A stretch of DNA of 64,000 nt. Source: an uncultured Candidatus Saccharibacteria bacterium. GTDB taxonomy: Bacteria > Patescibacteriota > CAZHWT01. Positions 5,556-57,595 of the stretch are shown one piece after another. The position numbers and the translations under genes were made by a program. The notes beneath the pieces were generated by a model that searched no databases, was not told the DNA's origin, and worked only from the letters and a program-made list of their open reading frames with translations. The first letter of the stretch is position 1. Each line of letters starts with the position of its first letter. The DNA lies in NCBI GenBank assembly GCA_964554805.1, contig CAZKPX010000001.1:124818-188817 (forward strand), read 5' to 3'.

Positions 5556-6237
5556 GGCGAGGTCCTCCTTGTCGACGAGCTGGTTGTGGAGCAGATGAGT
5601 CTACATTCTGAGCCTGATCCTTATCGCGATGGATCCAAACCTTAACACCGATGGTGCCATAGGAGGTCATAGCTGTGTCGGAAGCGAAGTCGATATTGGC
5701 ACGAAGGGTGTGGAGTGGGATAGTGCCGATACTCTTTTTCTCACTTCGAGCAATATCAGCGCCATTGAGACGACCGCTGATCATAATCTTGACTCCCTTG
5801 GCGCCTGCTGACATGGTGCGCTCGGCAGTCATGTTAATAGCACGACGAGGGGACATACGACGCTCAATCATCTCAGCAACATTGCGGGCTACCAACGTAG
5901 CGTACAAATCAGGGCGACGGACTTCAATGATGTTGAGCTTGAGCTTTTCACCATTTAGGCGAGACTGCAATTCAGCCTTAAGAGCTTCGGAGCTAGCACC
6001 GCCTCGACCAATAACCATACCTGGCTTGGCGACGTGGACATTGATAGTAATTTCGTTCACAGAACGCTCGATCTCAACACGCTGACAACCAGCATTCTTG
6101 AGCTTTTTGGTGATGTAATCACGCAATTCCAAATCCTTGTGCAACAACTCAACAAATCGCTTGCTGTCGAACCAGGTTGAACTCCAGTTTTTGGTTAAAG
6201 CTAAGCGAAGGCCTAGCGGGTGTGTTTTATGACCCAT
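5548..6237 (-). CDS. rpsC: 30S ribosomal protein S3
   Basis: [12 protein letters not shown]... KH domain followed by the S3 C-terminal domain. Confidence 0.9.
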
Positions 6238-6719
6238 TATTCTGTACCTTTTTCTGTGCTGCTTTTAGCAGCGGTGACGCGCGACGAGCGACGAGCGACG
6301 GGTTTGGTTTTCTTGTCGCTTGTTGCTTGTTGCTTGTTGCTTGCTTTTGCTTCGGCTAAGGCGGCGCGGCGCTTGCCGAGAATCAGTGGCTCATCTGTCA
6401 ATATGACGCGGACATGAGATGTGCGCTTCATTATAGACATGCCACGACCGCGAGAAGCTGCGCGCATTCTCTTGAGTGTTGGCCCTTCGCCAATTTCAAG
6501 AGTACGGATCCGCAGATTGCTCACAGGTAACTGATGATTGTTAGTAGCGTTTGCAATTGCAGATTGTATCACATCTTGGACAGTTTTGGCAGCCCTCAAA
6601 TTCATGAGGCTCAAAGCGTTGACGGCTTCGGTTGGTGAAAGGTCACGAACTGCAGTGGCTACAAGGCGAACCTTGCGTGGCGACTGACGGACGTACCGAG
6701 CGGAGGCAACAACGTTCAT
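6237..6719 (-). CDS. rplV: 50S ribosomal protein L22 with basic C-terminal extension
   Basis: L22 core. The C-terminal tail is encoded by the GCGACGAG repeat region at 6271-6345. Confidence 0.85.
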   Translation of the reverse strand: MNVVASARYVRQSPRKVRLVATAVRDLSPTEAVNALSLMNLRAAKTVQDVIQSAIANATNNHQLPVSNLRIRTLEIGEGPTLKRMRAASRGRGMSIMKRTSHVRVILTDEPLILGKRRAALAEAKASNKQQATSDKKTKPVARRSSRVTAAKSSTEKGTE

Positions 6720-9659: not shown

Positions 9660-9968
9660 TTACATTTTTACTTCAATGTTCACACCAGCCGGAACGGTTA
9701 GGTGCATGAGCGAATCAATAGTCTTAGGAGTTGGTTCTAAAATATCGATCAGGCGCTTATGAGTGCGCATTTCAAAAGCTTCGCGCGAGTCCTTGTCAAT
9801 GTGGGGACCACGGATAACAGTAAAGCGCTGCACTTCGGTAGGAAGTGGTACTGGACCGGCGATTTTGGCGCCAGTACGCAGGGCTGTGTCCAAGATCTCT
9901 TCGGAGGTCTGGTCAAGCACTTTGCTGTCGTATGATTTTAGTCGTACTCGAATTCGTCCTTTAGCCAT
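9660..9968 (-). CDS. rpsJ: 30S ribosomal protein S10
   Basis: [14 protein letters not shown]... S10. Confidence 0.9.
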
Positions 9969-10026
9969 AATGTGATACCTTATACACTATTCTTGCCTGA
10001 AAGGCAAGCCTTAATCTTTGATTAAG

Positions 10027-10096
10027 GCAGAGAGAAGTGAGAAGAAAGAAGTAAAAGTTTTGGTTATATTCTACTTTTCTCTTCTCGCTTCTCTCT
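10027..10096 (-). promoter_or_regulatory. Long GA/CU-rich inverted repeat (about 25-bp arms) in the S10-operon leader, between tuf and rpsJ
   Basis: GCAGAGAGAAGTGAGAAGAAAGAAGTAAAAG ... ACTTTTCTCTTCTCGCTTCTCTCT form an extended stem-loop. It lies about 60 nt upstream of the rpsJ start. Confidence 0.5.
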
Positions 10097-14718: not shown

Positions 14719-14750
14719 GAGCGACGAGCGACAGGCTACGGGCGACGGGG
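14719..14750. repeat. Copy of the dispersed GCGACGAGCGACRGG heptad-repeat element
   Basis: GAGCGACGAGCGACAGGCTACGGGCGACGGGG. Related copies lie at 6271-6302, 34489-34520, 50001-50038, 51860-51889 and 60165-60194. Confidence 0.6.
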
Positions 14751-34488: not shown

Positions 34489-34520
34489 AAGCGACGAGCG
34501 ACGTGCGACAGGCGACGAGG
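34489..34520. repeat. Copy of the GCGACGAGCGACGTG... heptad-repeat element
   Basis: GCGACGAGCGACGTGCGACAGGCGACGAGG, immediately after the stop of the 551-aa gene. Confidence 0.6.
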
Positions 34521-34610: not shown

Positions 34611-34681
34611 AGCGGATGAGAGGATTCGAACCTCCAGCCTTCCCAGGAGTCGGGATGCTCTGCCTTTTGAGCTTCATCCGC
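34611..34681 (-). tRNA. tRNA-like gene with a non-canonical anticodon arm (4-bp stem, loop GACUCCU); isotype unassigned, possibly a pseudo-tRNA
   Basis: Perfect 7-bp acceptor stem (GCGGATG/CATCCGC). D arm GCTC-AAAAGGCA-GAGC. T arm GGAGG-TTCGAAT-CCTCT. The anticodon region is 2 nt short and lacks U33 and R37. Confidence 0.5.
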
Positions 34682-34697
34682 ACTTCCTCATGAAGGG

Positions 34698-34773
34698 CGC
34701 CCGCAGAGGGATTTGAACCCCCGATCTGCTCTTTACGAAAGAGCTGCTCTAGTCCAGGCTGAGCCACACGGGC
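34698..34773 (-). tRNA. tRNA-Thr (anticodon CGU)
   Basis: 76-nt cloverleaf. Acceptor GCCCGTG/TGCGGGC, anticodon stem GCTCT/AGAGC, loop TTCGTAA, T loop TTCAAAT. No encoded CCA. Confidence 0.8.
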
Positions 34774-34817
34774 GATATGCCGACTTGCTTTATGCTCTGG
34801 CGAAACCTGAGCAGTAG

Positions 34818-34891
34818 TGGGCGAGAAAGGATTCGAACCTCTGACCTCAGAACTGTCAGTCCTGCGCTCTTACCATCTGAGCTACACGCCC
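34818..34891 (-). tRNA. tRNA-Val (anticodon GAC)
   Basis: 74-nt cloverleaf. Acceptor GGGCGTG/CTCGCCC, D arm GCTC-AGATGGTAA-GAGC, anticodon loop CTGACAG, T loop TTCGAAT. Confidence 0.85.
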
Positions 34892-42854: not shown

Positions 42855-43084
42855 ACGAGCGAATATTGAATATGGGATATGGGATATGGGGTATGAAAGT
42901 TTATATCTAGAGACTTTTTAACACGCGTTTAGAGAAAATGCTAGTGAAGTAGGGTTTAGTGGTGATTTAAAACTTATACCGTAAAGGTCAAAACTGCAAC
43001 TTAAAACTAAAAACTCTGAGATTCGAGTTAGAAATTTTTGGTTGCAGTTTTGCCTTTTTCATCTTGAGTTTTACGTTTTAAGAC

Positions 43085-44053
43085 TTAAGATCCGCGGCGG
43101 AAGAAAAGTTTCTTGGTCGACTTGGCGTCTTTGTCTTCTTTGCGACCTTTGTCTTCTGCGTCAGCAGCCTTTGGCTTTGACTTGGCTTCTGCCTTGGTTT
43201 CTTTATCTTTGGCTTTGTCCGAGAAATGCTTGGTGGATTTATCAGAATCTTGGGCATCCATCTTGTCTTCCTTCACAACAGGAGTGGCTTCTTCTAAAAT
43301 TCGGGTGGTGTAATGAGCAGTGACTGGTGCTTTAGGCGCTTCGGCGATTTCTTCTGAAGCTAGCATTGGTCGAGCAGTTGATTCCTCCTGGGGCTCCTCT
43401 TTGGCTACCTCTTCAATAGCCTCTTCGGTGGCAGTTTGACTGTGCATAGCGTAATGATGGCTGTGAGATCGACGACGGGTTGAATGAACTGAGACAGGCG
43501 CAGGCCTATGGTCCTCTGGGCTATCTTCCTCGTCTTCAATTTCTCTAATCATGAGGACATCTGGTACTTCAAGTTTGCTGGAGTCTAATTTATTAGAATC
43601 TAATTTATTTGAATCGGCCTTGGCTTCCAGCTGGTTGGCCGGGACTATTTCTTCGCCATACTCTTCCCAGCCACTGCGGAAAGCTTCGGCTATTTCGGAG
43701 ACGGTTTCGCGAGCGGTTTCGATGTGTTGCTCGATAGTTGAGGCTAGATGTTGAGCCTGGTGAGTAGCTTCGCCAATTTTTTGCGGAGCAGCCTCTACCA
43801 AACCGGCTGCACCTTCATTTAACGCTTGGTGCAGGGATTTGCTGACACCTTTGGCTTCCTTGGCTAGTTGGTAGGCTTCGGTCTCCCACTCTTTGGCGTA
43901 TTGCTTGACTAAATGACGCATTTCCTGGCCGTTTTTGGGGGTTAATAATAGGGCAGCAGCAGCTCCGGCCATAGCACCAACTACGGCACCGACGATGAAT
44001 TCGGCTTGTTTTGGATCTACTGGTTGGTGTTCTTGATTAGTCTGATGATCCAT
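43085..44053 (-). CDS. YtxH-like protein with a long acidic/basic low-complexity C-terminal region
   Basis: FIVGAVVGAMAGAAAALLLTPKNGQEMR matches the YtxH/DUF948-type N-terminal helix. Contains KLDSNKLDSSKL tandem repeats. Confidence 0.55.
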   Translation of the reverse strand: MDHQTNQEHQPVDPKQAEFIVGAVVGAMAGAAAALLLTPKNGQEMRHLVKQYAKEWETEAYQLAKEAKGVSKSLHQALNEGAAGLVEAAPQKIGEATHQAQHLASTIEQHIETARETVSEIAEAFRSGWEEYGEEIVPANQLEAKADSNKLDSNKLDSSKLEVPDVLMIREIEDEEDSPEDHRPAPVSVHSTRRRSHSHHYAMHSQTATEEAIEEVAKEEPQEESTARPMLASEEIAEAPKAPVTAHYTTRILEEATPVVKEDKMDAQDSDKSTKHFSDKAKDKETKAEAKSKPKAADAEDKGRKEDKDAKSTKKLFFRRGS

Positions 44054-44423
44054 GGCGATGTTGATCCTCCTTGGATTGTTCTTGTTGTTTAGCAATGATG
44101 CGCGAGACAGTCTGGAAGGCGGTCAGGCCAACTGAAGCAGGGCCTAAGAATTTGGTGGTGAGGTGAGAAACGGAAGAGGTGGCACTGGAAACTGAGCTGA
44201 CCATGGTACGAAGACCTTGGAGAACTTCGTCTGCGTATTGCTGCTGAATCACGGCCTTGGCTGAGACTTTTTCAACATCAGCCAGGATACGCTCGGTGCG
44301 AGCCAAGCTCTTGCGAAGATCTTTGAGTACGAAGAATAATTGAATACCAATAACAATCAGTGTTACACCAAGCAACACGATCATAATAGAGAGCAGAATC
44401 TGAGTTCCGGTTAATGAAAACAT
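44037..44423 (-). CDS. DUF948-like small membrane protein (N-terminal TM, then coiled coil)
   Basis: 128 aa. ILLSIMIVLLGVTLIVIGIQLFFVL followed by a helical region. Upstream of the YtxH-like gene, as in ytxG-ytxH arrangements. Confidence 0.45.
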   Translation of the reverse strand: MFSLTGTQILLSIMIVLLGVTLIVIGIQLFFVLKDLRKSLARTERILADVEKVSAKAVIQQQYADEVLQGLRTMVSSVSSATSSVSHLTTKFLGPASVGLTAFQTVSRIIAKQQEQSKEDQHRHGSSD

Positions 44424-44464
44424 GGGCAGTGTCCTTTTTATGTGGTTATATCTATGATACTAAA

Positions 44465-44640
44465 TCATGAGTCAAAGGGCAAAGGTCAAATCTAGCAAGC
44501 ATGGGAGAGTTAAGGCAAAAATCAAAAGGCAAAGGGCAAAAGTTAAGCTTTGAAAGTTAAATGTTTAACCACGACATAAAATAAACTTTATACTTTTGAT
44601 TTTTATTTTTGCCTTTTGACTTTGGACCTTTGACCTTACT
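44465..44640. repeat. Imperfect inverted repeat built from AAAGGCAAAGGGCAAAAG / CTTTTGCCTTTTGACTTT units (5' region of the DUF948 gene)
   Basis: Left arm 44469-44542 and right arm 44593-44637 are reverse-complementary with G/T substitutions. The same unit occurs at 55672-55763. Confidence 0.4.
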
Positions 44641-45652
44641 TAACATATTCTTTCTCGATAACTTGGTTGGGTTGACCGAGTAGGCCTTGGTCTATGCCGT
44701 GAAGTAAAACGCGAGTAGAGCCGGCGTTGCCGGATTTGAGCCGAATTTTGGTATTGGCGCTAAATGATTGGCTGGATGAAGGGAGCAGTAAACCGCTGAA
44801 TAACTGTTTGTCATCACCACTAACCTCTATCCAGGCTGGTGAGGCACCGATGACTACCTCGATGTTGACATTGGATAAGGTGGCTGAAGCAGTAGACTGA
44901 GTGGGCGTTGGACGTCCAGCAGATGATGAAGCTTGGATAGTAGCCTGGCTGGCAAGTTTGACAGGTCCGACCACGGTTCTTTCGACGACAGTTGATTTGC
45001 CTAGCTTGTTGACTGCTTCAAAGCGAAGAGTGTTGCTGCCAGTAGCCAGGCCTACGGTAAATTTAAATTTGCCATCTGGATCCAATTGCACTGATTGGCC
45101 ATTGAGAGTTAGGGTGGAGTCAGGATTGGTTTGGCCCTCAACTTGGAGCTGGCCATTGGTTGAGGTAGAGTTTGATTGCGGTTGAGATAAAGATAAATCG
45201 GGATTTAGGGCTACAGAAACATACTGATTGTAGCTGTAGCCGATGACTACCAAAATTGCCAGGGTTAAAAATCCTACGACCACCCATCCGGGAGTAATTT
45301 TTGATTTCTTTGGCTCAATGGGAGAAAGTGGTTGACTAAGCTGTTGCTGTTCGCGCTGTTCATCATACTCACGTCGGAAAAAAGGCAGTACTTCATGCTC
45401 GTCTAGGCCAACATATAAGGCATAGGCTTTGATGAAACCTTTTAAATAAAGTGGATCGGTTAGGCCAAAAAACTTGCCCTGCTCAATGGATTGAAGCATG
45501 GGAACTCTGACTTTAATGGCTTTGGATACGTCTTCGAGCGATCTGCCTTTAGCTTCACGAGCAGCTCTCAAAATATCACCCGTACGTTTGGTGTTGAGGG
45601 TCGAGGGGTTATTTTTCTTAGTTTTAGAGGGAATGCGAGTCTGAGTGGGCAT
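44636..45652 (-). CDS. rodZ: RodZ-like cytoskeleton protein (N-terminal XRE-type HTH, TM, C-terminal beta-rich domain)
   Basis: ILRAAREAKGRSLEDVSKAIKVRVPMLQSIEQGKF..., then a single TM and a Ser/Thr-rich periplasmic region. Confidence 0.6.
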   Translation of the reverse strand: MPTQTRIPSKTKKNNPSTLNTKRTGDILRAAREAKGRSLEDVSKAIKVRVPMLQSIEQGKFFGLTDPLYLKGFIKAYALYVGLDEHEVLPFFRREYDEQREQQQLSQPLSPIEPKKSKITPGWVVVGFLTLAILVVIGYSYNQYVSVALNPDLSLSQPQSNSTSTNGQLQVEGQTNPDSTLTLNGQSVQLDPDGKFKFTVGLATGSNTLRFEAVNKLGKSTVVERTVVGPVKLASQATIQASSSAGRPTPTQSTASATLSNVNIEVVIGASPAWIEVSGDDKQLFSGLLLPSSSQSFSANTKIRLKSGNAGSTRVLLHGIDQGLLGQPNQVIEKEYVK

Positions 45653-48050: not shown

Positions 48051-48100
48051 AAAGTGAGCAGAGAGAAGAGAACAGAGAGAAGTCTTTCTGCTCTCACTGC
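48051..48100 (-). promoter_or_regulatory. GA/CU-rich inverted-repeat element immediately 5' of ftsK (the mRNA leader is CU-rich, with no Shine-Dalgarno)
   Basis: AAAGTGAGCAGAGAGAAGAGAACAGAGAGAAG...CTTTCTGCTCTCACT. A second copy lies at 48170-48200. Confidence 0.4.
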
Positions 48101-49903: not shown

Positions 49904-52081
49904 TTATTCAGCCTGAGGTTGAGTGTCTGTTGGGGCGTCGGATGAGTCGACTGAATCAGGGGCGATGGCGGCTGATTTGGGGGCCTTGGTCGCTTCGGTG
50001 GCGGAGCGACGAGCGACAGGCGACGAGCGACGAGCGGGTGCTGGCTTGGCGGCTGCGCTGGCTGGGGCGGTGATTGGGCGGCGAGGAGTCGAGGTGCCGG
50101 TGCCGCGCATTTCGATGAGAACTGGCAGAACAATTGGGGTTCGGTCGGTTTCTTGCTTGAAGTACTTGCCGAGACGATCTTGAATGCGAGAGCGGATAGT
50201 TCCCCACTCTTGGTTCTTGGTTTGCGGATCGGTGATAACAGAGCGAGCAATAGAACGAGCTTCAGCCATTAACTTTTCGTTGAGACGAGCGTAAACAAAG
50301 CCGCGAGTTTGGACTTCGACTTCGCCAATCAGTTCTTTATCTTTGTTGAGTGTCGCACCGACGATGAAGACACCGGAATCGGCTAGCTGTTTGCGATCGG
50401 CAATGACAACTTCGCCAATGTCCCCTACTCCCAGACCATCGACCATGACGGAGGTATATGGGTGCTCTTCGCCCAGCTTGGCGTTGCCTTGGTTATCAAA
50501 GAGGACTTCCTGACCCGCGACAACCGTGAAAATGTGACCTTCAGGGTATCCCATTTTTTGGGCCATCTGCTTGTAGGCCTTGAGTTGACGCATCTGACCA
50601 GAGATAGGTACTAGGTATTTGGCTTTGACTAAAGCAATAGTTGTTTTGAGTTCTTCGGCGGCGGCATGTCCGGATACGTGAAGATTGTTCATAATATCGG
50701 AATAAGCGATGGTGGCGCCCAGGTCGGTCAGCTCGTCAATGATATCGTTGATGCCGCTTTCGCTACCAGGAATTGGATCGGCGGAGAAAATGACTTTGTC
50801 TTCCGTCTTAATGGTAAAGAGCTTGTGTTGACCTGATGTCAGTCGGGCTAAGGCCGAACCTTCTTGGCCATACGCACCAGTTAGAATGATTAATTGCTGA
50901 TCATCTGGGTAATCAGAGATAGCAGTATCGCGAACGACAACGCCGTCAGGGATTTGAGCATAGCCCAAACGTGTGGCGATGCCCATGACGTTATCAATGC
51001 TTCGACCAGCAAAGGCAACCTTGCGGTTGTAGCGCATGGCCACATTGATGGCTTGCTGCATACGGGTAACGTTGGAAGAGATGGTTGTTAGGAAGACGCG
51101 GCCTTTGGCGTTGCGCATTTCGGTATCCAGGCGATCTTCTACAACTGCTTCGGATGGGGTGTAGCCGGGTTTTTCGACACGTAGACAGTCGGACATGAGG
51201 GCCAGAACGCCTTCGCCACCGGCGCGAGCCAATTTGTCGACTTCGATAATAGTACCGTCAACGCTAGTCCAGTCATACTTGTAGTCACCGGTGTGGATAG
51301 TTGATCCAATTGGCGTCTTGATGACATAGCCAAAGGTGTCTGGGATGGAGTGGTTGACGCGGAATGGATTGAGGGTGAAATGACCGAAGGTGTATTCTTG
51401 GTCTGGCTCTATTTCGTGTAAGTCTAATTTGGCTCGGAACTCTGATAGTTTGCCTTTGATTAATTCAAGGGCAAAGCGAGGAGCGTAGATTGGAACATTC
51501 ATTTTGGGTGCTAAATAAGGGACAGCACCGATATGATCCTCGTGACCATGGGTGATAACGAGGGCCTTGATGCGATGTAGTTTATCCTTTAGATAGGTCA
51601 TATCTGGGATAACAATATCGATACCAAGCATGTCGCTAGAAGGGAAGCCCATGCCGCAGTCAACAACAATAATGTCGTTGCCATACTCGTAGACAAACAT
51701 GTTTTGGGTGACAAAACCATTACCTCCTAATGGTAAGACTTTTAGGACTGGGGCGCCTTCAGGATTGAAGGACCCTTGCTCGTTGAGAGACTGTTGTGCC
51801 ATACGAGCACGATTGATTGGCTGATGGCGATTGCGTCGGACTGGAGCGCCGCTGTTGGCGGGAGCGACAGGCGACGTGCGACGAGTAGGAGCAGCACCTG
51901 TACTACCTACGGCTTTGGGGGCTGCAGGTCGAGCAGTTGGGCTGGTAGCACCTGTTGGGGTGGTTGGAGTCGAAGCTGAAGTAGGAGCGCTTGGCTTTGA
52001 GCCGGCGCTGGCATTGATGCCATTGTTGGTCCGAGGACGGCCGCCTGATCTATTTGGGTTTGGTCGGAAATATTCTGACAT
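49904..52081 (-). CDS. rnj: Ribonuclease J (beta-CASP metallo-beta-lactamase) with low-complexity N- and C-terminal extensions
   Basis: VITHGHEDHIGAVPYL motif and a beta-CASP region. Ser/Pro/Ala/Arg-rich tails of about 130 aa (N) and about 90 aa (C) contain GCGACGAG repeats at 51860-51889 and 50001-50038. Confidence 0.85.
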   Translation of the reverse strand: MSEYFRPNPNRSGGRPRTNNGINASAGSKPSAPTSASTPTTPTGATSPTARPAAPKAVGSTGAAPTRRTSPVAPANSGAPVRRNRHQPINRARMAQQSLNEQGSFNPEGAPVLKVLPLGGNGFVTQNMFVYEYGNDIIVVDCGMGFPSSDMLGIDIVIPDMTYLKDKLHRIKALVITHGHEDHIGAVPYLAPKMNVPIYAPRFALELIKGKLSEFRAKLDLHEIEPDQEYTFGHFTLNPFRVNHSIPDTFGYVIKTPIGSTIHTGDYKYDWTSVDGTIIEVDKLARAGGEGVLALMSDCLRVEKPGYTPSEAVVEDRLDTEMRNAKGRVFLTTISSNVTRMQQAINVAMRYNRKVAFAGRSIDNVMGIATRLGYAQIPDGVVVRDTAISDYPDDQQLIILTGAYGQEGSALARLTSGQHKLFTIKTEDKVIFSADPIPGSESGINDIIDELTDLGATIAYSDIMNNLHVSGHAAAEELKTTIALVKAKYLVPISGQMRQLKAYKQMAQKMGYPEGHIFTVVAGQEVLFDNQGNAKLGEEHPYTSVMVDGLGVGDIGEVVIADRKQLADSGVFIVGATLNKDKELIGEVEVQTRGFVYARLNEKLMAEARSIARSVITDPQTKNQEWGTIRSRIQDRLGKYFKQETDRTPIVLPVLIEMRGTGTSTPRRPITAPASAAAKPAPARRSSPVARRSATEATKAPKSAAIAPDSVDSSDAPTDTQPQAE

Positions 52082-52084
52082 ACT

Positions 52085-52180
52085 ACTTTGAAGGAGAAAG
52101 GAGAGGGATCCGCCAGTTGGCGGAGTGAGAAGTTCTTTTTAACTTCTTTTTCTGTTATCTCTTTTCTCTTATTATTCTTT
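52085..52180 (-). promoter_or_regulatory. GA/CU-rich leader element with two short hairpins immediately 5' of rnj
   Basis: GGAGAAAGGAGAGGG, CCGCCAGTTGGCGG hairpin, and GAGTGAGAAGTTCTTTTTAACTTCTTTTTCTG. Confidence 0.35.
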
Positions 52181-52313
52181 CTGGCCGAAAATCGGCCTAT
52201 TACTTACGATACGCCATGAAGCGCCTGTGGCGCGGATATTGGATATGGGGCATAGACAGATATGTTAGTCTATGTCCAGGTTGTGGCGTAAGGTTATTCA
52301 AAGGGGCACTGAG

Positions 52314-53561: not shown

Positions 53562-55655
53562 CTAGGCTTGCTCCGGCTTCGGCAAGAGGGCTTTGCGGGA
53601 TAGATTGATTCGGCCTTGATCGTCAATCTTAACGACTTTGACGTTGACCATATCGCCTTCATTGACGACATCAGTCACGTTGTCGACTCGAGCATGCTCT
53701 AGTTCTGAGATATGAATCAGTCCGTCTTTGCCTGGAACTAGTTCGACAAAGGCACCGAAGTCCATAACTTTGACAACTTTACCAATATATTCTTCATCTA
53801 CCTTAATTTCCTTGGTGAGATTCTGGATCCATTCGATAGCTCGCTGCAAACCTTGAGGATTGTCGCTAGCAATAGTGACCGAGCCATCGTCTTCGATGTC
53901 GATTTGAGCGCCGGTTTCATCAATGATTTGGTTGATCATTTTGCCACCCGGTCCGATAACAATACCGATCAGTTTGGGATTGATCTTGATCATCTGAACG
54001 CGTGGTGCGTATTGTGACAATTCAGGGCGAACATCAGTGATGGTCTTCATCATTTCGTTGAGGATATGAGCTCGACCAACCTTGGCTTGAGCCAAAGCTT
54101 CTTGGAGAATCTTCTGGCTAATACCGGTTAATTTCATGTCTAGCTGGAGAGCGGTAATACCTTTGGAGGTACCGGCTACTTTGAAGTCCATATCGCCCAT
54201 GAAGTCTTCGAGACCTTGAATGTCGGACAGGATGGCATACTGATCACCGTCAGTGATAAGCCCCATGGCAATACCTGATACAGGAGCTGTGATTGGCACA
54301 CCGGCGTCCATGAGGGACATGGTTGAGCCACAGACAGAACCCATGGATGAGGAGCCATTGGAAGAGAGGGTTTCTGATACAACACGAATGGTGTAGGGGA
54401 ATGACTCTTCTGAAGGGATAACTGGCACTAAGGCGCGTTCAGCCAAGGCGCCGTGACCGATTTCGCGTCGGCTAACCGAACCAATGCGACGGACTTCGCC
54501 AACTGAGTAAGGAGGGAAGTTGTAGTGGTGGAGATACTTTTTGCTTGATTCGCCTTCCATGCCATCAATGATTTGGGCTAAGGAGGTTGAACCTAATGTG
54601 ACGACTGACAGGACCTGAGTTTGTCCGCGAGTAAAGAGAGCTGAGCCATGGGTTCGAGGCAACACACCAACCTGTGTCCAGATATCACGAACCTGATCGA
54701 GGCTGCGACCGTCTACGCGCTTCTTTTCGGTCAAGACGAGCTGGCGGACAACTTGCTTGACAGCCTTTTCGACAGCACCGGACATTTCCTTTTTAGTAGC
54801 GCGATCTTCAAACTTGGCCAGCACTTCGGCTTTGAACTCACCGACCGCATCTTCGCGAGAAGTTTTGTCTGGAGTCAGAAGACTGGTGGCTACATGTTCC
54901 TGAACATACTGATTAATTTCTTTTTCAAGTTCAGGGTCAATCTTGATGGCTTCAAAGGCATACTTTGTTTTACCTGCCTGAGACTTAAAGTCTTCGATGA
55001 GACTGACTATTTCAGAGATTTGTTCATGACCAGCCTGCATGGCGGTCAACATCTGTTCTTCAGTTACCTGATTGGCACCTGCTTCAACCATGGCAATGGC
55101 CTGATTGGTTCCGGATAAGGTCAAATCGAGATTGGTGGCTTGGCGATCAGCAGCTTGAGGATTGGTAACATAGTTGTCTTGACCTAACAGACCCATTCGA
55201 ACTGCACCGACAGGACCTGCCCATGGAATAGAAGAGATACTTAAAGCTGCTGAGGCTGCAATAACACTTAGGATATCTGGCTCGTTGTCGCCATCAATCG
55301 ACAGGACGGTAATGATTACCTGAACCTCGTTATAGAAGTCTTTGGGGAAGAGAGGGCGGATTGAACGATCGATGATACGAGCAGTTAAGGTGGCGTGATC
55401 GGTTGGACGGCCTTCGCGCTTGATGAAGCGTGAAGTGTGAATTCGTCCACCAGCGTATAGACGCTCAGCATATTCAACTGTTAAAGGGAAGAAATCCATG
55501 TCTTCTCTGGCTGTGGCGCTACAGACACTGGCTAGAACCATGGTGTCACCATACCGAGCTACTACAGCTCCATCGGCTTGTTCAGCCATGCGGCCAGTCT
55601 CTAATGACAGGGTTCGACCGGCAATTTGACGTTCGACTTTTATTGTTTTATTCAT
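53562..55655 (-). CDS. pnp: Polyribonucleotide nucleotidyltransferase (PNPase); start at the internal MNKTIKVE
   Basis: Two RNase PH-like domains, KH domain (IGPGGKMINQI), and S1 domain (GKVVKVMDFGAFVEL). Confidence 0.9.
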   Translation of the reverse strand: MNKTIKVERQIAGRTLSLETGRMAEQADGAVVARYGDTMVLASVCSATAREDMDFFPLTVEYAERLYAGGRIHTSRFIKREGRPTDHATLTARIIDRSIRPLFPKDFYNEVQVIITVLSIDGDNEPDILSVIAASAALSISSIPWAGPVGAVRMGLLGQDNYVTNPQAADRQATNLDLTLSGTNQAIAMVEAGANQVTEEQMLTAMQAGHEQISEIVSLIEDFKSQAGKTKYAFEAIKIDPELEKEINQYVQEHVATSLLTPDKTSREDAVGEFKAEVLAKFEDRATKKEMSGAVEKAVKQVVRQLVLTEKKRVDGRSLDQVRDIWTQVGVLPRTHGSALFTRGQTQVLSVVTLGSTSLAQIIDGMEGESSKKYLHHYNFPPYSVGEVRRIGSVSRREIGHGALAERALVPVIPSEESFPYTIRVVSETLSSNGSSSMGSVCGSTMSLMDAGVPITAPVSGIAMGLITDGDQYAILSDIQGLEDFMGDMDFKVAGTSKGITALQLDMKLTGISQKILQEALAQAKVGRAHILNEMMKTITDVRPELSQYAPRVQMIKINPKLIGIVIGPGGKMINQIIDETGAQIDIEDDGSVTIASDNPQGLQRAIEWIQNLTKEIKVDEEYIGKVVKVMDFGAFVELVPGKDGLIHISELEHARVDNVTDVVNEGDMVNVKVVKIDDQGRINLSRKALLPKPEQA

Positions 55656-55671
55656 ACTTGGTTGTGGGGCA

Positions 55672-55763
55672 GAAATCAAAGGGCAAAAGGCAAAGGGCAA
55701 AAATGTGTCAAGTTATATTTTTGACTTTCATTTTTGACTTTTGCTTTTTGACTTTTGACTTTC
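55672..55763. repeat. AAAGGGCAAAAGGCAAAGGGCAAAAA / TTTTTGACTTTTGCTTTTTGACTTTTGACTTT inverted-repeat element in the pnp 5' leader
   Basis: Arms at 55672-55705 and 55716-55763. Same unit family as 44465-44640. Confidence 0.4.
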
Positions 55764-55880
55764 TAAGCCCCTTCTCCTTTAGGATAATGGATTTAATTCT
55801 GGATTAGCTAGAATATAGGTTAATTGCTCTTAGAATGACACAGCCTGCAGTTGAAGGCAGGCTGAGCAAGAAATTTTGAT

Positions 55881-56150
55881 TTACTGCTTGAGACCGAGCT
55901 TGTCGACGATAGCCTTGTATCGCTCGGCATCTTTTTGAGTCAAATAGCGAAGTAAACGACGACGCTTGCCAACCATCTGTAATAGACCACGGCGAGAGTG
56001 ATCGTCGCCTGCGTGCTCTTTAAGGTGATCGGTTAGCTTCTTGATCTTCTCGGTTAGCAGAGCGATTTGCACCTCAGGAGAACCCGTGTCTTGCTCGTGA
56101 GTCTTGTAAGAAGTAATGATTTCGGTTTTATGGTTCTTATTTAATGCCAT
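55881..56150 (-). CDS. rpsO: 30S ribosomal protein S15
   Basis: [46 protein letters not shown]... S15. Upstream of pnp as in the classic rpsO-pnp arrangement. Confidence 0.9.
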
Positions 56151-56275
56151 AGGTTTATTATTGTTCTGCGCTGAGGCGCTGCTTTGTCTATTGTAGCCCA
56201 CAAAAATATATGTGACAAGCCACTAACATGCTGCCGTATCTTACCAGATATAGCATATAGAATGCAACTATTTGG

Positions 56276-57517
56276 TTATTGGGCTTGATTGACTGCTGAC
56301 AAATCAGGCTGTTCGGGCGCATCCTCCTGTTGTTGTGCTGGAATTGGTGATGATGTAGGTTGGGCAGATACTTGTGCTTGTATCTCTGCTTGCACTACTT
56401 GAAGCACTTTTTGGCGGGCTTCGGCCAGTGTAATATCGGTAAGCCTAAATCCGGAGGCCAAGATATGACCGCCACCATTGAGCTGGCGGGCCATAGCTTG
56501 AACATTGATAGTAGGATCGATGGAGCGCAAGCTACCGCTCACTTCTCTATCTTCCTTTTCTTTAATTACGATGCCTACTTTGGCGCCTGGGACTGACGTG
56601 ATGTAGCCATTAACCAAGTTGCCCAATGTATCTTGATCGGCTTCAGAAGCGCCGGTTTCGGCTATATCTGCCAGCTGAACATCGGTGATAATAATGTCGT
56701 CGCTAATTGTTTCTATGCGACCCAAGACAAGTGCCCATAGTTTAAGGGCTGGAACTGACATGGTTCGGAATAAGCTCTGCATAAGACCGGCCAAATTGGC
56801 GCCACCATCTACAAGATCAGCTGCCTGTCGGAGACTGGCTGAGGTGGTGTTGCGATTCATAAAGGCAGAAGTATCGGATAGGAGGCCAGCTAAGAGGTTG
56901 GTAGCCATATCAGGGGTGGCTGGCTGCTCTAGTTCTGCAATAACATCAGCGACAACATGAGAGGCTGAGGCGTAATTCGGATTAATTACATTAAGCGTGC
57001 CAAAATTGTTATTATCGGCATGATGGTCAATATTTACCACAGGGATACGGCTGATCTGGCTGGCAAAGGTGATATACCATTGGCCGAGCAACTTGGGGTC
57101 AGCAGTATCGACGACAAAAATAGCGTCAAAATCTAGGCCAGTTTGAGAATAGCTGATTTGATCGGCGGTAATTTCGCCAGTGGCAGGGGTGAGAATCAAA
57201 TTAAATTTTGAATCTTCGGCGTTATAATTGATTTTTTCAATGGGGTTGGTGCCGAGGTTGATAGAGATAATAAGGCTCTTCTGTCCGACGGCGCTGCCGA
57301 CCTGATCAATGCCCGGCAAAAAAGACATTGCGCCTTGATCGAAGTCTTCGATAGCGACAACTACTTGCTTGCCGGCATTCTTTAGGGCTGAGGCTAATGC
57401 CAGAGCAGATCCGACGGCGTCAGGGTCAACATTAGTTCCGGAGGTGACGAGAACCCGCTCAATGGCAGGGTTATCGACCAGTTCTTTGATTTGTTGGATA
57501 GTTGTGTCTATCTGCAT
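56276..57517 (-). CDS. nrnA: DHH-family phosphoesterase (NrnA-like oligoribonuclease / pAp phosphatase)
   Basis: DHH motif (NIDHHADNN), DHHA1-like C-terminal region (GGGH), and a Gln/Pro-rich tail. Confidence 0.7.
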   Translation of the reverse strand: MQIDTTIQQIKELVDNPAIERVLVTSGTNVDPDAVGSALALASALKNAGKQVVVAIEDFDQGAMSFLPGIDQVGSAVGQKSLIISINLGTNPIEKINYNAEDSKFNLILTPATGEITADQISYSQTGLDFDAIFVVDTADPKLLGQWYITFASQISRIPVVNIDHHADNNNFGTLNVINPNYASASHVVADVIAELEQPATPDMATNLLAGLLSDTSAFMNRNTTSASLRQAADLVDGGANLAGLMQSLFRTMSVPALKLWALVLGRIETISDDIIITDVQLADIAETGASEADQDTLGNLVNGYITSVPGAKVGIVIKEKEDREVSGSLRSIDPTINVQAMARQLNGGGHILASGFRLTDITLAEARQKVLQVVQAEIQAQVSAQPTSSPIPAQQQEDAPEQPDLSAVNQAQ

Positions 57518-57535: not shown

Positions 57536-57595
57536 AAAGTGAGAAGGAGAAGTGAGAAGTTTTTGATTTCTTCTGGCTTCTTCTTTTTACTTCTA
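57536..57595 (-). promoter_or_regulatory. GA/CU-rich imperfect inverted repeat immediately 5' of nrnA
   Basis: AAAAGTGAGAAGGAGAAGTGAGAAG...CTTCTGGCTTCTTCTTTTTACTTCT. Confidence 0.35.

Follow-up and report, generated by a model that had tools for sequence, protein, structure and literature searches.

The window, i.e., the whole 64-kb stretch of DNA that was analyzed, carried rpsO and pnp on the minus strand (ORF listing and Pfam), and the element under study was located in the 225-nt spacer between the two genes. The genes and features of this locus, given in the direction of transcription, were as follows.

55881-56150, minus strand: rpsO coding sequence (ribosomal protein S15; Pfam Ribosomal_S15)
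55841-55864, minus strand: G+C-rich stem-loop just after rpsO, CAGCCUGCC...GGCAGGCUG (fold)
55812-55841, minus strand: promoter-like GTGTCA-18-TATATT, candidate pnp promoter (consensus match only)
55774-55780, minus strand: Shine-Dalgarno-like AAAGGAG (from the sequence; position kept in nine of nine leaders)
55666-55771, minus strand: full imperfect pnp-leader hairpin of about 40 pairs, closed by GGGGC/GCCCC (folds, inverted repeat)
55726-55771, minus strand: 5' arm of the hairpin on the mRNA, GGGGC-UU-AGAAAGU, then CAAAAGU/CAAAAAG units (TRF, sequence)
55707-55725, no strand assigned: apical mini-stem GTCAAG / TTTGAC with a 7-nt loop (fold)
55666-55705, minus strand: 3' arm of the hairpin on the mRNA, UUUUUGCCC/UUUGCCU/UUUGCCC/UUUGAUUUCU-GCCCC (TRF at 55677-55702, sequence)
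55653-55665, minus strand: 10-nt spacer ACAACCAAGU and the pnp AUG, with no Shine-Dalgarno-like motif
53562-55655, minus strand: pnp coding sequence (PNPase; Pfam RNase_PH, PNPase, KH and S1 domains)

The original prediction had described a palindrome in the pnp leader at 55672-55763. We confirmed this palindrome with the sequence given there, and the hairpin was found to be slightly wider, extending over 55666-55771; it was an imperfect palindrome of 106 bases with approximately 40 pairs, the GGGGC/GCCCC base included. The placement in the pnp leader was right and the strand as written was not, the pnp mRNA being the reverse complement of the sequence reported. The repeat search detected inverted-repeat arms at 55673-55705 and 55729-55761, which were 33 nt each, 82% complementary, and separated by 23 nt. 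The TRF results revealed that both arms were period-7 arrays, with 3.7 copies of CAAAAGG at 55677-55702 and 6.4 copies of TTTTGAC at 55719-55762 on the plus strand; the 3' arm of the mRNA (55666-55705) corresponded to the CAAAAGG/CAAAGGG array of 3.7 copies and the 5' arm (55726-55771) to the TTTTGAC array of 6.4 copies. On the sense strand, each arm contained about five tandem heptamers, which were of the GUCAAAA type in the 5' arm and of the UUUGCCC/UUUUGCC type in the 3' arm. With 7-nt units arranged head to tail in at least three copies, the hairpin belongs among the heptanucleotide simple sequence repeats. When a 113-nt segment was folded, the free energy was -50.1 kcal/mol (z -8.2) for the plus strand and -37.2 kcal/mol (z -6.4) for the minus strand, which is the sense strand of pnp, and none of 200 shuffles matched the native fold on either strand. 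In independent Logan assemblies of two further runs, the spacer was base-for-base identical (L001, L163, and L164), indicating that the palindrome was not an assembly artefact, and no copy-number polymorphism of the pnp heptamers was seen among the assemblies from the three sequencing runs.

The pnp leader of the window was ordered as AAAGGAG, 2 nt, the 106-nt hairpin, 10 nt, and the AUG. The Shine-Dalgarno-like motif was therefore placed 2 nt 5' of the hairpin base and, in linear terms, 118 nt before the start codon; for comparison, a Shine-Dalgarno-like tetramer was present at -20 to -6 in 33 of the 59 genes of the window. The stem-loop at 55841-55864 looks like a terminator, and it was conserved in the nearest relative, L165. 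The heptamer hairpin itself was considered as the rpsO terminator and rejected, since the separate G+C-rich stem at 55841-55864 fits this role and no U-tract follows the hairpin. Upstream of rpsO, a promoter-like TTGTCA-17-TACAAT at 56190-56218 (minus strand) was conserved across the relatives, as was the leader around this site, TCTGGTAAGATAC...GCTACAAT. Elsewhere in the window, a cluster of three tRNA genes was located at 34611-34891 (minus strand).

We compared nine orthologous pnp leaders (the window, L165, L167, L172, L169, L170, L173, L171, and L005), the PNPases of which were 73-88% identical. The closest PNPases, with 73-84% identity, came from MAGs labelled Saccharibacteria or Sumerlaeota, and the closest Logan match reached 88%; the next-closest belonged to Patescibacteria (57%), followed by Chloroflexota and Bacillota. 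A cyanobacterium with STRR repeats, which the abundance of heptamers had first brought to mind, was rejected as the source on the basis of these PNPase matches. A metagenome scan with the PNPase returned only relatives of 54% identity or less. The gene order was kept in the relatives, running through nusA, infB, a DHH-family gene, rpsO, pnp, an AAA ATPase, RNase J, FtsK, and a RodZ-like gene. In all nine leaders, an AGGAG(G)-like motif was found 97-132 nt before the AUG, and the predicted folds filled the intervening stretch with one hairpin (83-123 nt, 31-44 pairs), which was separated from the motif by 0-6 nt and from the AUG by 7-13 nt. When the region close to the start codon (about -23 to -8) was scanned, none of the nine had a Shine-Dalgarno-like tetramer there. 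The large leader hairpin that had been proposed for pnp was thus borne out, with a hairpin at the equivalent position in every leader compared. Because these nine leaders are homologous and not independent, their common layout amounts to few events.

The hairpins of the relatives differed in their content. Five relatives shared a nearly invariant, non-repetitive hairpin core, GGTAA(A/C)GTTTGGYAGAAAAT-loop-ATTTTCTTTCAAYCMTTAC, at L167 5823-5885, L169 2204-2266, L170 5800-5863, L171 9843-9908, and L005 2000-2069; L172 (about 1430-1500) also has the invariant core, and L173 has a variant of it. A covariance model (R1) was built from the leaders of five relatives, with L003 and L167 carrying one shared leader. 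In the cmsearch analysis, the core model scored 78-85 bits in L003/L167, L169, L170, L171, and L005, which are the loci of the model itself, and neither the window nor L165 nor any of 77 distant loci yielded a match to the core motif GGTAAAGTTTGGYAGAAAAT-loop-ATTTTCTTTCAAYCCTTAC. No Rfam match was obtained for the core, and we consider it a candidate new cis-regulatory RNA motif. The idea that the window hairpin is a recognizable copy of this core was rejected, as the covariance model found no match in the window. A leader peptide, MVKFGRK, in the core of the relatives was likewise rejected; the conserved bases fell in different frames, and the stop positions varied.

The flanks found in the window (AAAGGAG, GGGG...CCCC, and CAGAAA/TTTCTG) recurred in the nearest relative, L165, and its hairpin consisted of heptamers of a similar type, with approximately three units per arm vs. 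five in the window and an unrelated apical part. The copy number had therefore changed between relatives at an orthologous site. So a hairpin at the pnp-leader site is old and conserved, and the heptamer filling appears to be a recent replacement in one branch, in which the copy number has changed since. The earlier view that the element is a shared or mobile motif "rather than a pnp-specific structure" was unsupported, given that the position of the hairpin was pnp-specific and conserved and that only the heptamer filling was generic.

The heptamer units had also been noted upstream of a DUF948 gene, and we confirmed them at the following second locus.

44465-44645, minus strand: second copy of the heptamer hairpin family (pattern, repeat, fold, and alignment evidence)

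Its arrays were located at 44470-44490, 44512-44542, and 44592-44637. The second copy started at the stop codon of a RodZ-like gene (44636-45652) and ended about 80 nt before the DUF948-like ORF (44037-44423). A search for CAAAGGGCAAAAGGCAAAG with up to 3 mismatches gave 5 matches in the 64-kb window against 0.05 expected, all at the 55.6-kb and 44.5-kb loci. The two copies had an identical 19-mer in common and were alignable over the whole hairpin, with a 50-nt ungapped stretch of 80% identity and a score of 55. Shuffling in 7-nt blocks yielded scores of 26 +/- 5 (maximum 48), and none of the 500 shuffles attained the observed score. The score beyond the block shuffles indicated that the copies shared the order of unit variants and not merely the units, suggesting that they are probably related by descent. 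The downstream gene of the second copy had its own Shine-Dalgarno motif, so the contexts of the two loci differed; together with the start of the second copy at the RodZ-like stop codon and its distance from the next start codon, this spoke against the "shared regulatory motif" that had been suggested for them. In the 80% relative (L003 20470-20710 and L167 16398-16628), the spacer that follows the RodZ-like gene, which corresponds in position to the second locus of the window, contained a large hairpin made of other heptamers (GTAGTTA / ACTAACT).

The survey of tandem repeats in the 64-kb window showed an excess of period 7 with an intergenic bias. With one scoring scheme, 8 period-7 arrays were found vs. 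0-1 for each other period from 4 to 12, and 13 of 21 arrays fell within non-coding DNA, which makes up 15% of the window (p = 1.5e-6). The density of period-7 arrays per 10 kb was 1.25 in the window and 1.49 in the close relatives vs. 0.06 in 77 distant pnp loci (1.39 Mb), i.e., these arrays were approximately 20 times commoner in the window and its close relatives, and the other periods were close to zero. The repeat units recognized in the original prediction were real; what it had missed was that they are heptanucleotide tandem repeats and part of a genome-wide period-7 habit. Several spacers contained hairpins in which both arms were heptamer arrays of other units.

57537-57593, no strand assigned: hairpin of GAGAAGU-type units, ending 20 nt ahead of the start codon of the DHH/DHHA1 (NrnA-like) gene
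52092-52170, no strand assigned: heptamer-array hairpin, ending 11 nt ahead of the start codon of RNase J
48058-48100, no strand assigned: heptamer-array hairpin, ending about 11 nt ahead of the start codon of FtsK
42990-43051, no strand assigned: heptamer-array hairpin in a spacer
10029-10096, no strand assigned: hairpin of GAGAAGN units in the spacer upstream of ORF 9660-9968

The DHH/NrnA-like, RNase J, and FtsK genes had no Shine-Dalgarno motif at -20 to -6. The hairpins in front of them were absent at the equivalent sites in the relatives, indicating that such heptamer hairpins come and go and that they can arise without a conserved function. The 3' arms of these three hairpins were CU-rich (anti-Shine-Dalgarno-like), and the 5' arms were GA-rich. 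In L165, a promoter-like TTGATT-16-TATACT upstream of FtsK (9964-10011) was partly made from a heptamer array. Other arrays in the window were of different kinds. ORF 6237-6719, in the ribosomal-protein operon, contained inverted (GCGACGA)n and (GCTTGTT)n arrays at 6273-6345, within its low-complexity C-terminal tail; they formed 10 G:U pairs on the plus strand and none on the sense strand (-47.8 vs. -22.6 kcal/mol). Direct (GCGACGA)n arrays with no inverted partner were located at 14721-14749, 34490-34519, 50004-36, and 60165-93, the one at 50004 lying within the RNase J ORF, at its 3' end. Two spacers (42870-42895 and 52236-52255) contained (ATATGGG)n-type units, which form a second, small family of heptamers.

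Collectively, we favor, with moderate confidence, the explanation that a conserved pnp-leader hairpin has been rebuilt by heptamer slippage and that it bridges a split ribosome-binding site, serves as a target of a double-strand-specific RNase, or both. A rival explanation, which we judge unlikely, holds that the palindrome is a dispersed selfish or neutral element, either REP/REPIN/MITE-like or a by-product of slippage, which landed or grew in two spacers and plays no role specific to pnp. The shared unit order and overall alignment of the two copies (80% over 50 nt, 0/500 block shuffles) are in keeping with it, as are the many other spacers that contain heptamer hairpins with other units, the absence of those hairpins in the relatives, and the presence of the heptamer family upstream of FtsK in L165. 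However, only 2 copies were found in 64 kb, and the similarity between them was limited to the arrays and their near surroundings. The "small mobile palindromic element" of the original prediction fared poorly as well: no ends, terminal inverted repeats, or target-site duplications could be defined beyond the arrays, and the nearest relative had a shorter version with an identical site and flanks. The pnp site had a hairpin before the heptamers, its flanks were unchanged in L165, and the differences in copy number were consistent with in-place slippage, all of which count against this rival.

Two further explanations place the function elsewhere than in the pnp mRNA. A functional RNA on the plus strand, antisense to pnp/rpsO, could take the form of a small RNA like SraG or of an antisense hairpin, and we regard this as very improbable. 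The hairpin that had been proposed was real, and the better pairing of its antisense strand had been missed: the plus strand folded at -50.1 vs. -37.2 kcal/mol for the sense strand, and 4 plus-strand G:U pairs corresponded to A.C mismatches on the sense strand. In E. coli, the antisense RNA SraG spans the equivalent spacer and forms the mirror hairpin (PMC5029454). However, no plus-strand promoter-like site was found within 55500-56300, and Rfam yielded nothing at the gathering or E-value thresholds for the pnp hairpin, only sub-threshold look-alikes of generic microRNA precursors. Moreover, the excess of plus-strand G:U pairs was general (32 vs. 9 on the minus strand over seven hairpins) and matched the window-wide skew of the plus strand (G>C and T>A), which we read as mutational bias or skew acting on weakly constrained pairs. 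Nearly all genes of the window are on the minus strand, yet the plus strand is the one with G>C (skew +0.03 to +0.16) and T>A, and the spacers of the window generally folded better on the plus strand. We give the least credence to a role at the DNA level, in which phased -35-like boxes, an A/T-rich upstream element, or a cruciform would affect transcription or replication. The units TTTTGAC and TTTGCC contain TTGAC or TTGCC and resemble -35 boxes; a promoter-like TTGCCC-17-TATCAT at the second locus (44454-44482, minus strand) was partly made from its array, and TTGACA occurred on the sense strand in the apical loop region of the pnp hairpin (55707-55725). Against such a role, no -10 partner followed any box at the pnp locus on either strand, the AUG 10 nt past the hairpin leaves no room for a promoter, and the counts of promoter-like sites were not above the shuffled expectation.

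For the favored explanation, a rebuilt hairpin within the pnp leader, we infer from predictions the following course of transcription, processing, and translation. The lineage, an uncultured one related to Patescibacteria/Saccharibacteria, keeps one long hairpin between the Shine-Dalgarno-like AGGAG(G) and the pnp AUG. On the branch leading to the window genome and L165, the ancestral non-repetitive core would have been replaced by tandem heptanucleotide repeats in both arms, and these heptamers would grow and shrink via replication slippage, giving five units per arm in the window and three in L165. Transcription of pnp probably begins at the promoter-like GTGTCA-18-TATATT just past the rpsO stem, and the mRNA would then include AAAGGAG and the hairpin. 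Closing of the hairpin would leave about 12 nt between the distal Shine-Dalgarno motif and the AUG, creating a split ribosome-binding site from which pnp could be translated. With about 40 pairs, the helix would also be a likely target of a double-strand-specific RNase, and a cut in it would separate the start codon from its Shine-Dalgarno motif, resulting in a control loop for PNPase. Such a loop would parallel those that depend on RNase III in E. coli and Streptomyces, being alike in outcome and not in wiring. The heptamer sequence itself is probably not read, and the helix may be what matters.

The layout of the leader was consistent with a split site: the 118 nt of linear distance was reduced to 2 + 10 nt with the helix closed, and folding predictions gave the same arrangement in all nine leaders. 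Several observations counted against the scheme. The sense helix had periodic mismatches, four of them A.C, and its fold was 13 kcal/mol weaker than that of the antisense strand, which argues against strong selection for perfect pairing on the sense strand. With the helix closed, the AUG would be 8-19 nt from the Shine-Dalgarno motif across the leaders (12 nt in the window), which in several relatives is more than the optimum. A search of the 64-kb window and the loci of the relatives for an RNase III gene or its signature motif found neither, which is uninformative given that the window covers only 64 kb of this genome. A fuller scheme, which we put forward as speculation and consider doubtful, would have pnp translated via a split ribosome-binding site held together only by a helix of about 100 nt; a double-strand-specific RNase, followed by PNPase, would switch the gene off by severing the Shine-Dalgarno motif from the start codon, and slippage in both arms would quickly retune the length and stability of the helix; RNase J, the NrnA-like gene, and FtsK might be controlled in the same way.

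If the favored explanation is true, the control of PNPase by a leader hairpin would extend well past Proteobacteria and Actinobacteria to a poorly known CPR-related lineage, and the wiring would differ in that the hairpin would lie inside the ribosome-binding site. It would also be a natural case of simple-sequence repeats replacing a conserved RNA helix while the geometry is kept, which would bear on the evolution of structured leaders. Function aside, a strong period-7 habit outside cyanobacteria, Xanthomonas, and Beggiatoaceae matters for genome assembly, annotation, and typing.

Among the known repeat families, REP/REPIN and MITE-type palindromic repeats (PMC3116915) resemble the pnp element in being short intergenic palindromes present in more than one copy. 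The pnp element differs in that it has no conserved core with defined ends and that its copies are built of tandem sub-repeats; in place of many dispersed, bounded copies, only two related copies with no boundaries beyond the arrays were found in 64 kb, and no associated transposase was noted in an unsystematic look at the window. A closer likeness was found with the over-represented heptanucleotide repeats known as STRR in Calothrix and Nostoc, GGGAATC in Xanthomonas, and TAACTGA in Beggiatoaceae and Microcystis (PMC4692102, PMC4679880), which are intergenic, sometimes form inverted pairs, and often adjoin start codons (PMC4692102, PMC4679880). As in those genomes, period 7 was specifically enriched in the window, the arrays were mostly intergenic and often just 5' of start codons, some were inverted pairs, and the copy number varied between relatives. 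The differences are that the lineage is another one, with Saccharibacteria in the MAG titles and the next-closest PNPases in Patescibacteria, that the unit sequences are different and vary by locus, and that the inverted-pair (hairpin) arrangement is frequent. In Haemophilus influenzae hmw1A, a 5'-UTR hairpin with heptamer repeats, (ATCTTTC)n, has been demonstrated to be cut by RNase III (PMC12721329). Both cases involve transcribed heptanucleotide repeats in a 5' UTR that form an arm of a long hairpin, which controls expression in hmw1A. However, both arms are heptamer arrays in the pnp leader vs. one arm in hmw1A, the copy number was constant across the assemblies of the three runs, and the gene is pnp rather than a phase-variable adhesin.

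With regard to pnp itself, both E. coli and S. coelicolor have hairpins between rpsO and pnp that are cut by RNase III (PMC5029454, PMC10126417). The original prediction had invoked the E. coli case as a precedent, and its positional part held: the window hairpin is at the equivalent position and fits the E. coli and Streptomyces hairpins. The order is also alike, with rpsO, a terminator-like stem (55841-55864), a promoter-like site (a consensus match only), a long leader stem-loop in the spacer, and pnp, and the window helix is long enough to be a substrate of a double-strand-specific RNase. The window hairpin has no sequence or Rfam relationship to those hairpins, its arms are heptamer repeats, and it is located between the Shine-Dalgarno-like motif and the AUG, whereas the E. 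coli/Streptomyces hairpin is upstream of the Shine-Dalgarno motif; cleavage and autoregulation would apply here by analogy. For the hairpin inside the ribosome-binding site, the nearest likeness is provided by the split ribosome-binding sites of the T4 genes 25 and 38, the former with a spacing of 11 nt with its hairpin (PMC3014915). In both systems, the Shine-Dalgarno motif is too distant in linear terms, and a hairpin shortens the distance, to 5-11 nt in T4 and to a predicted 12 nt or so in the window and 8-19 nt in the relatives. The bridging hairpin of the window lineage spans 83-123 nt, whereas the T4 structure shortens just 22-27 nt, and the T4 genes are phage genes, whereas pnp is a cellular housekeeping gene with a split site predicted from folding. 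Taken together, the pnp element is a variant that combines known kinds, namely the pnp-leader hairpin, heptanucleotide repeats, and a split ribosome-binding site, rather than a new class.
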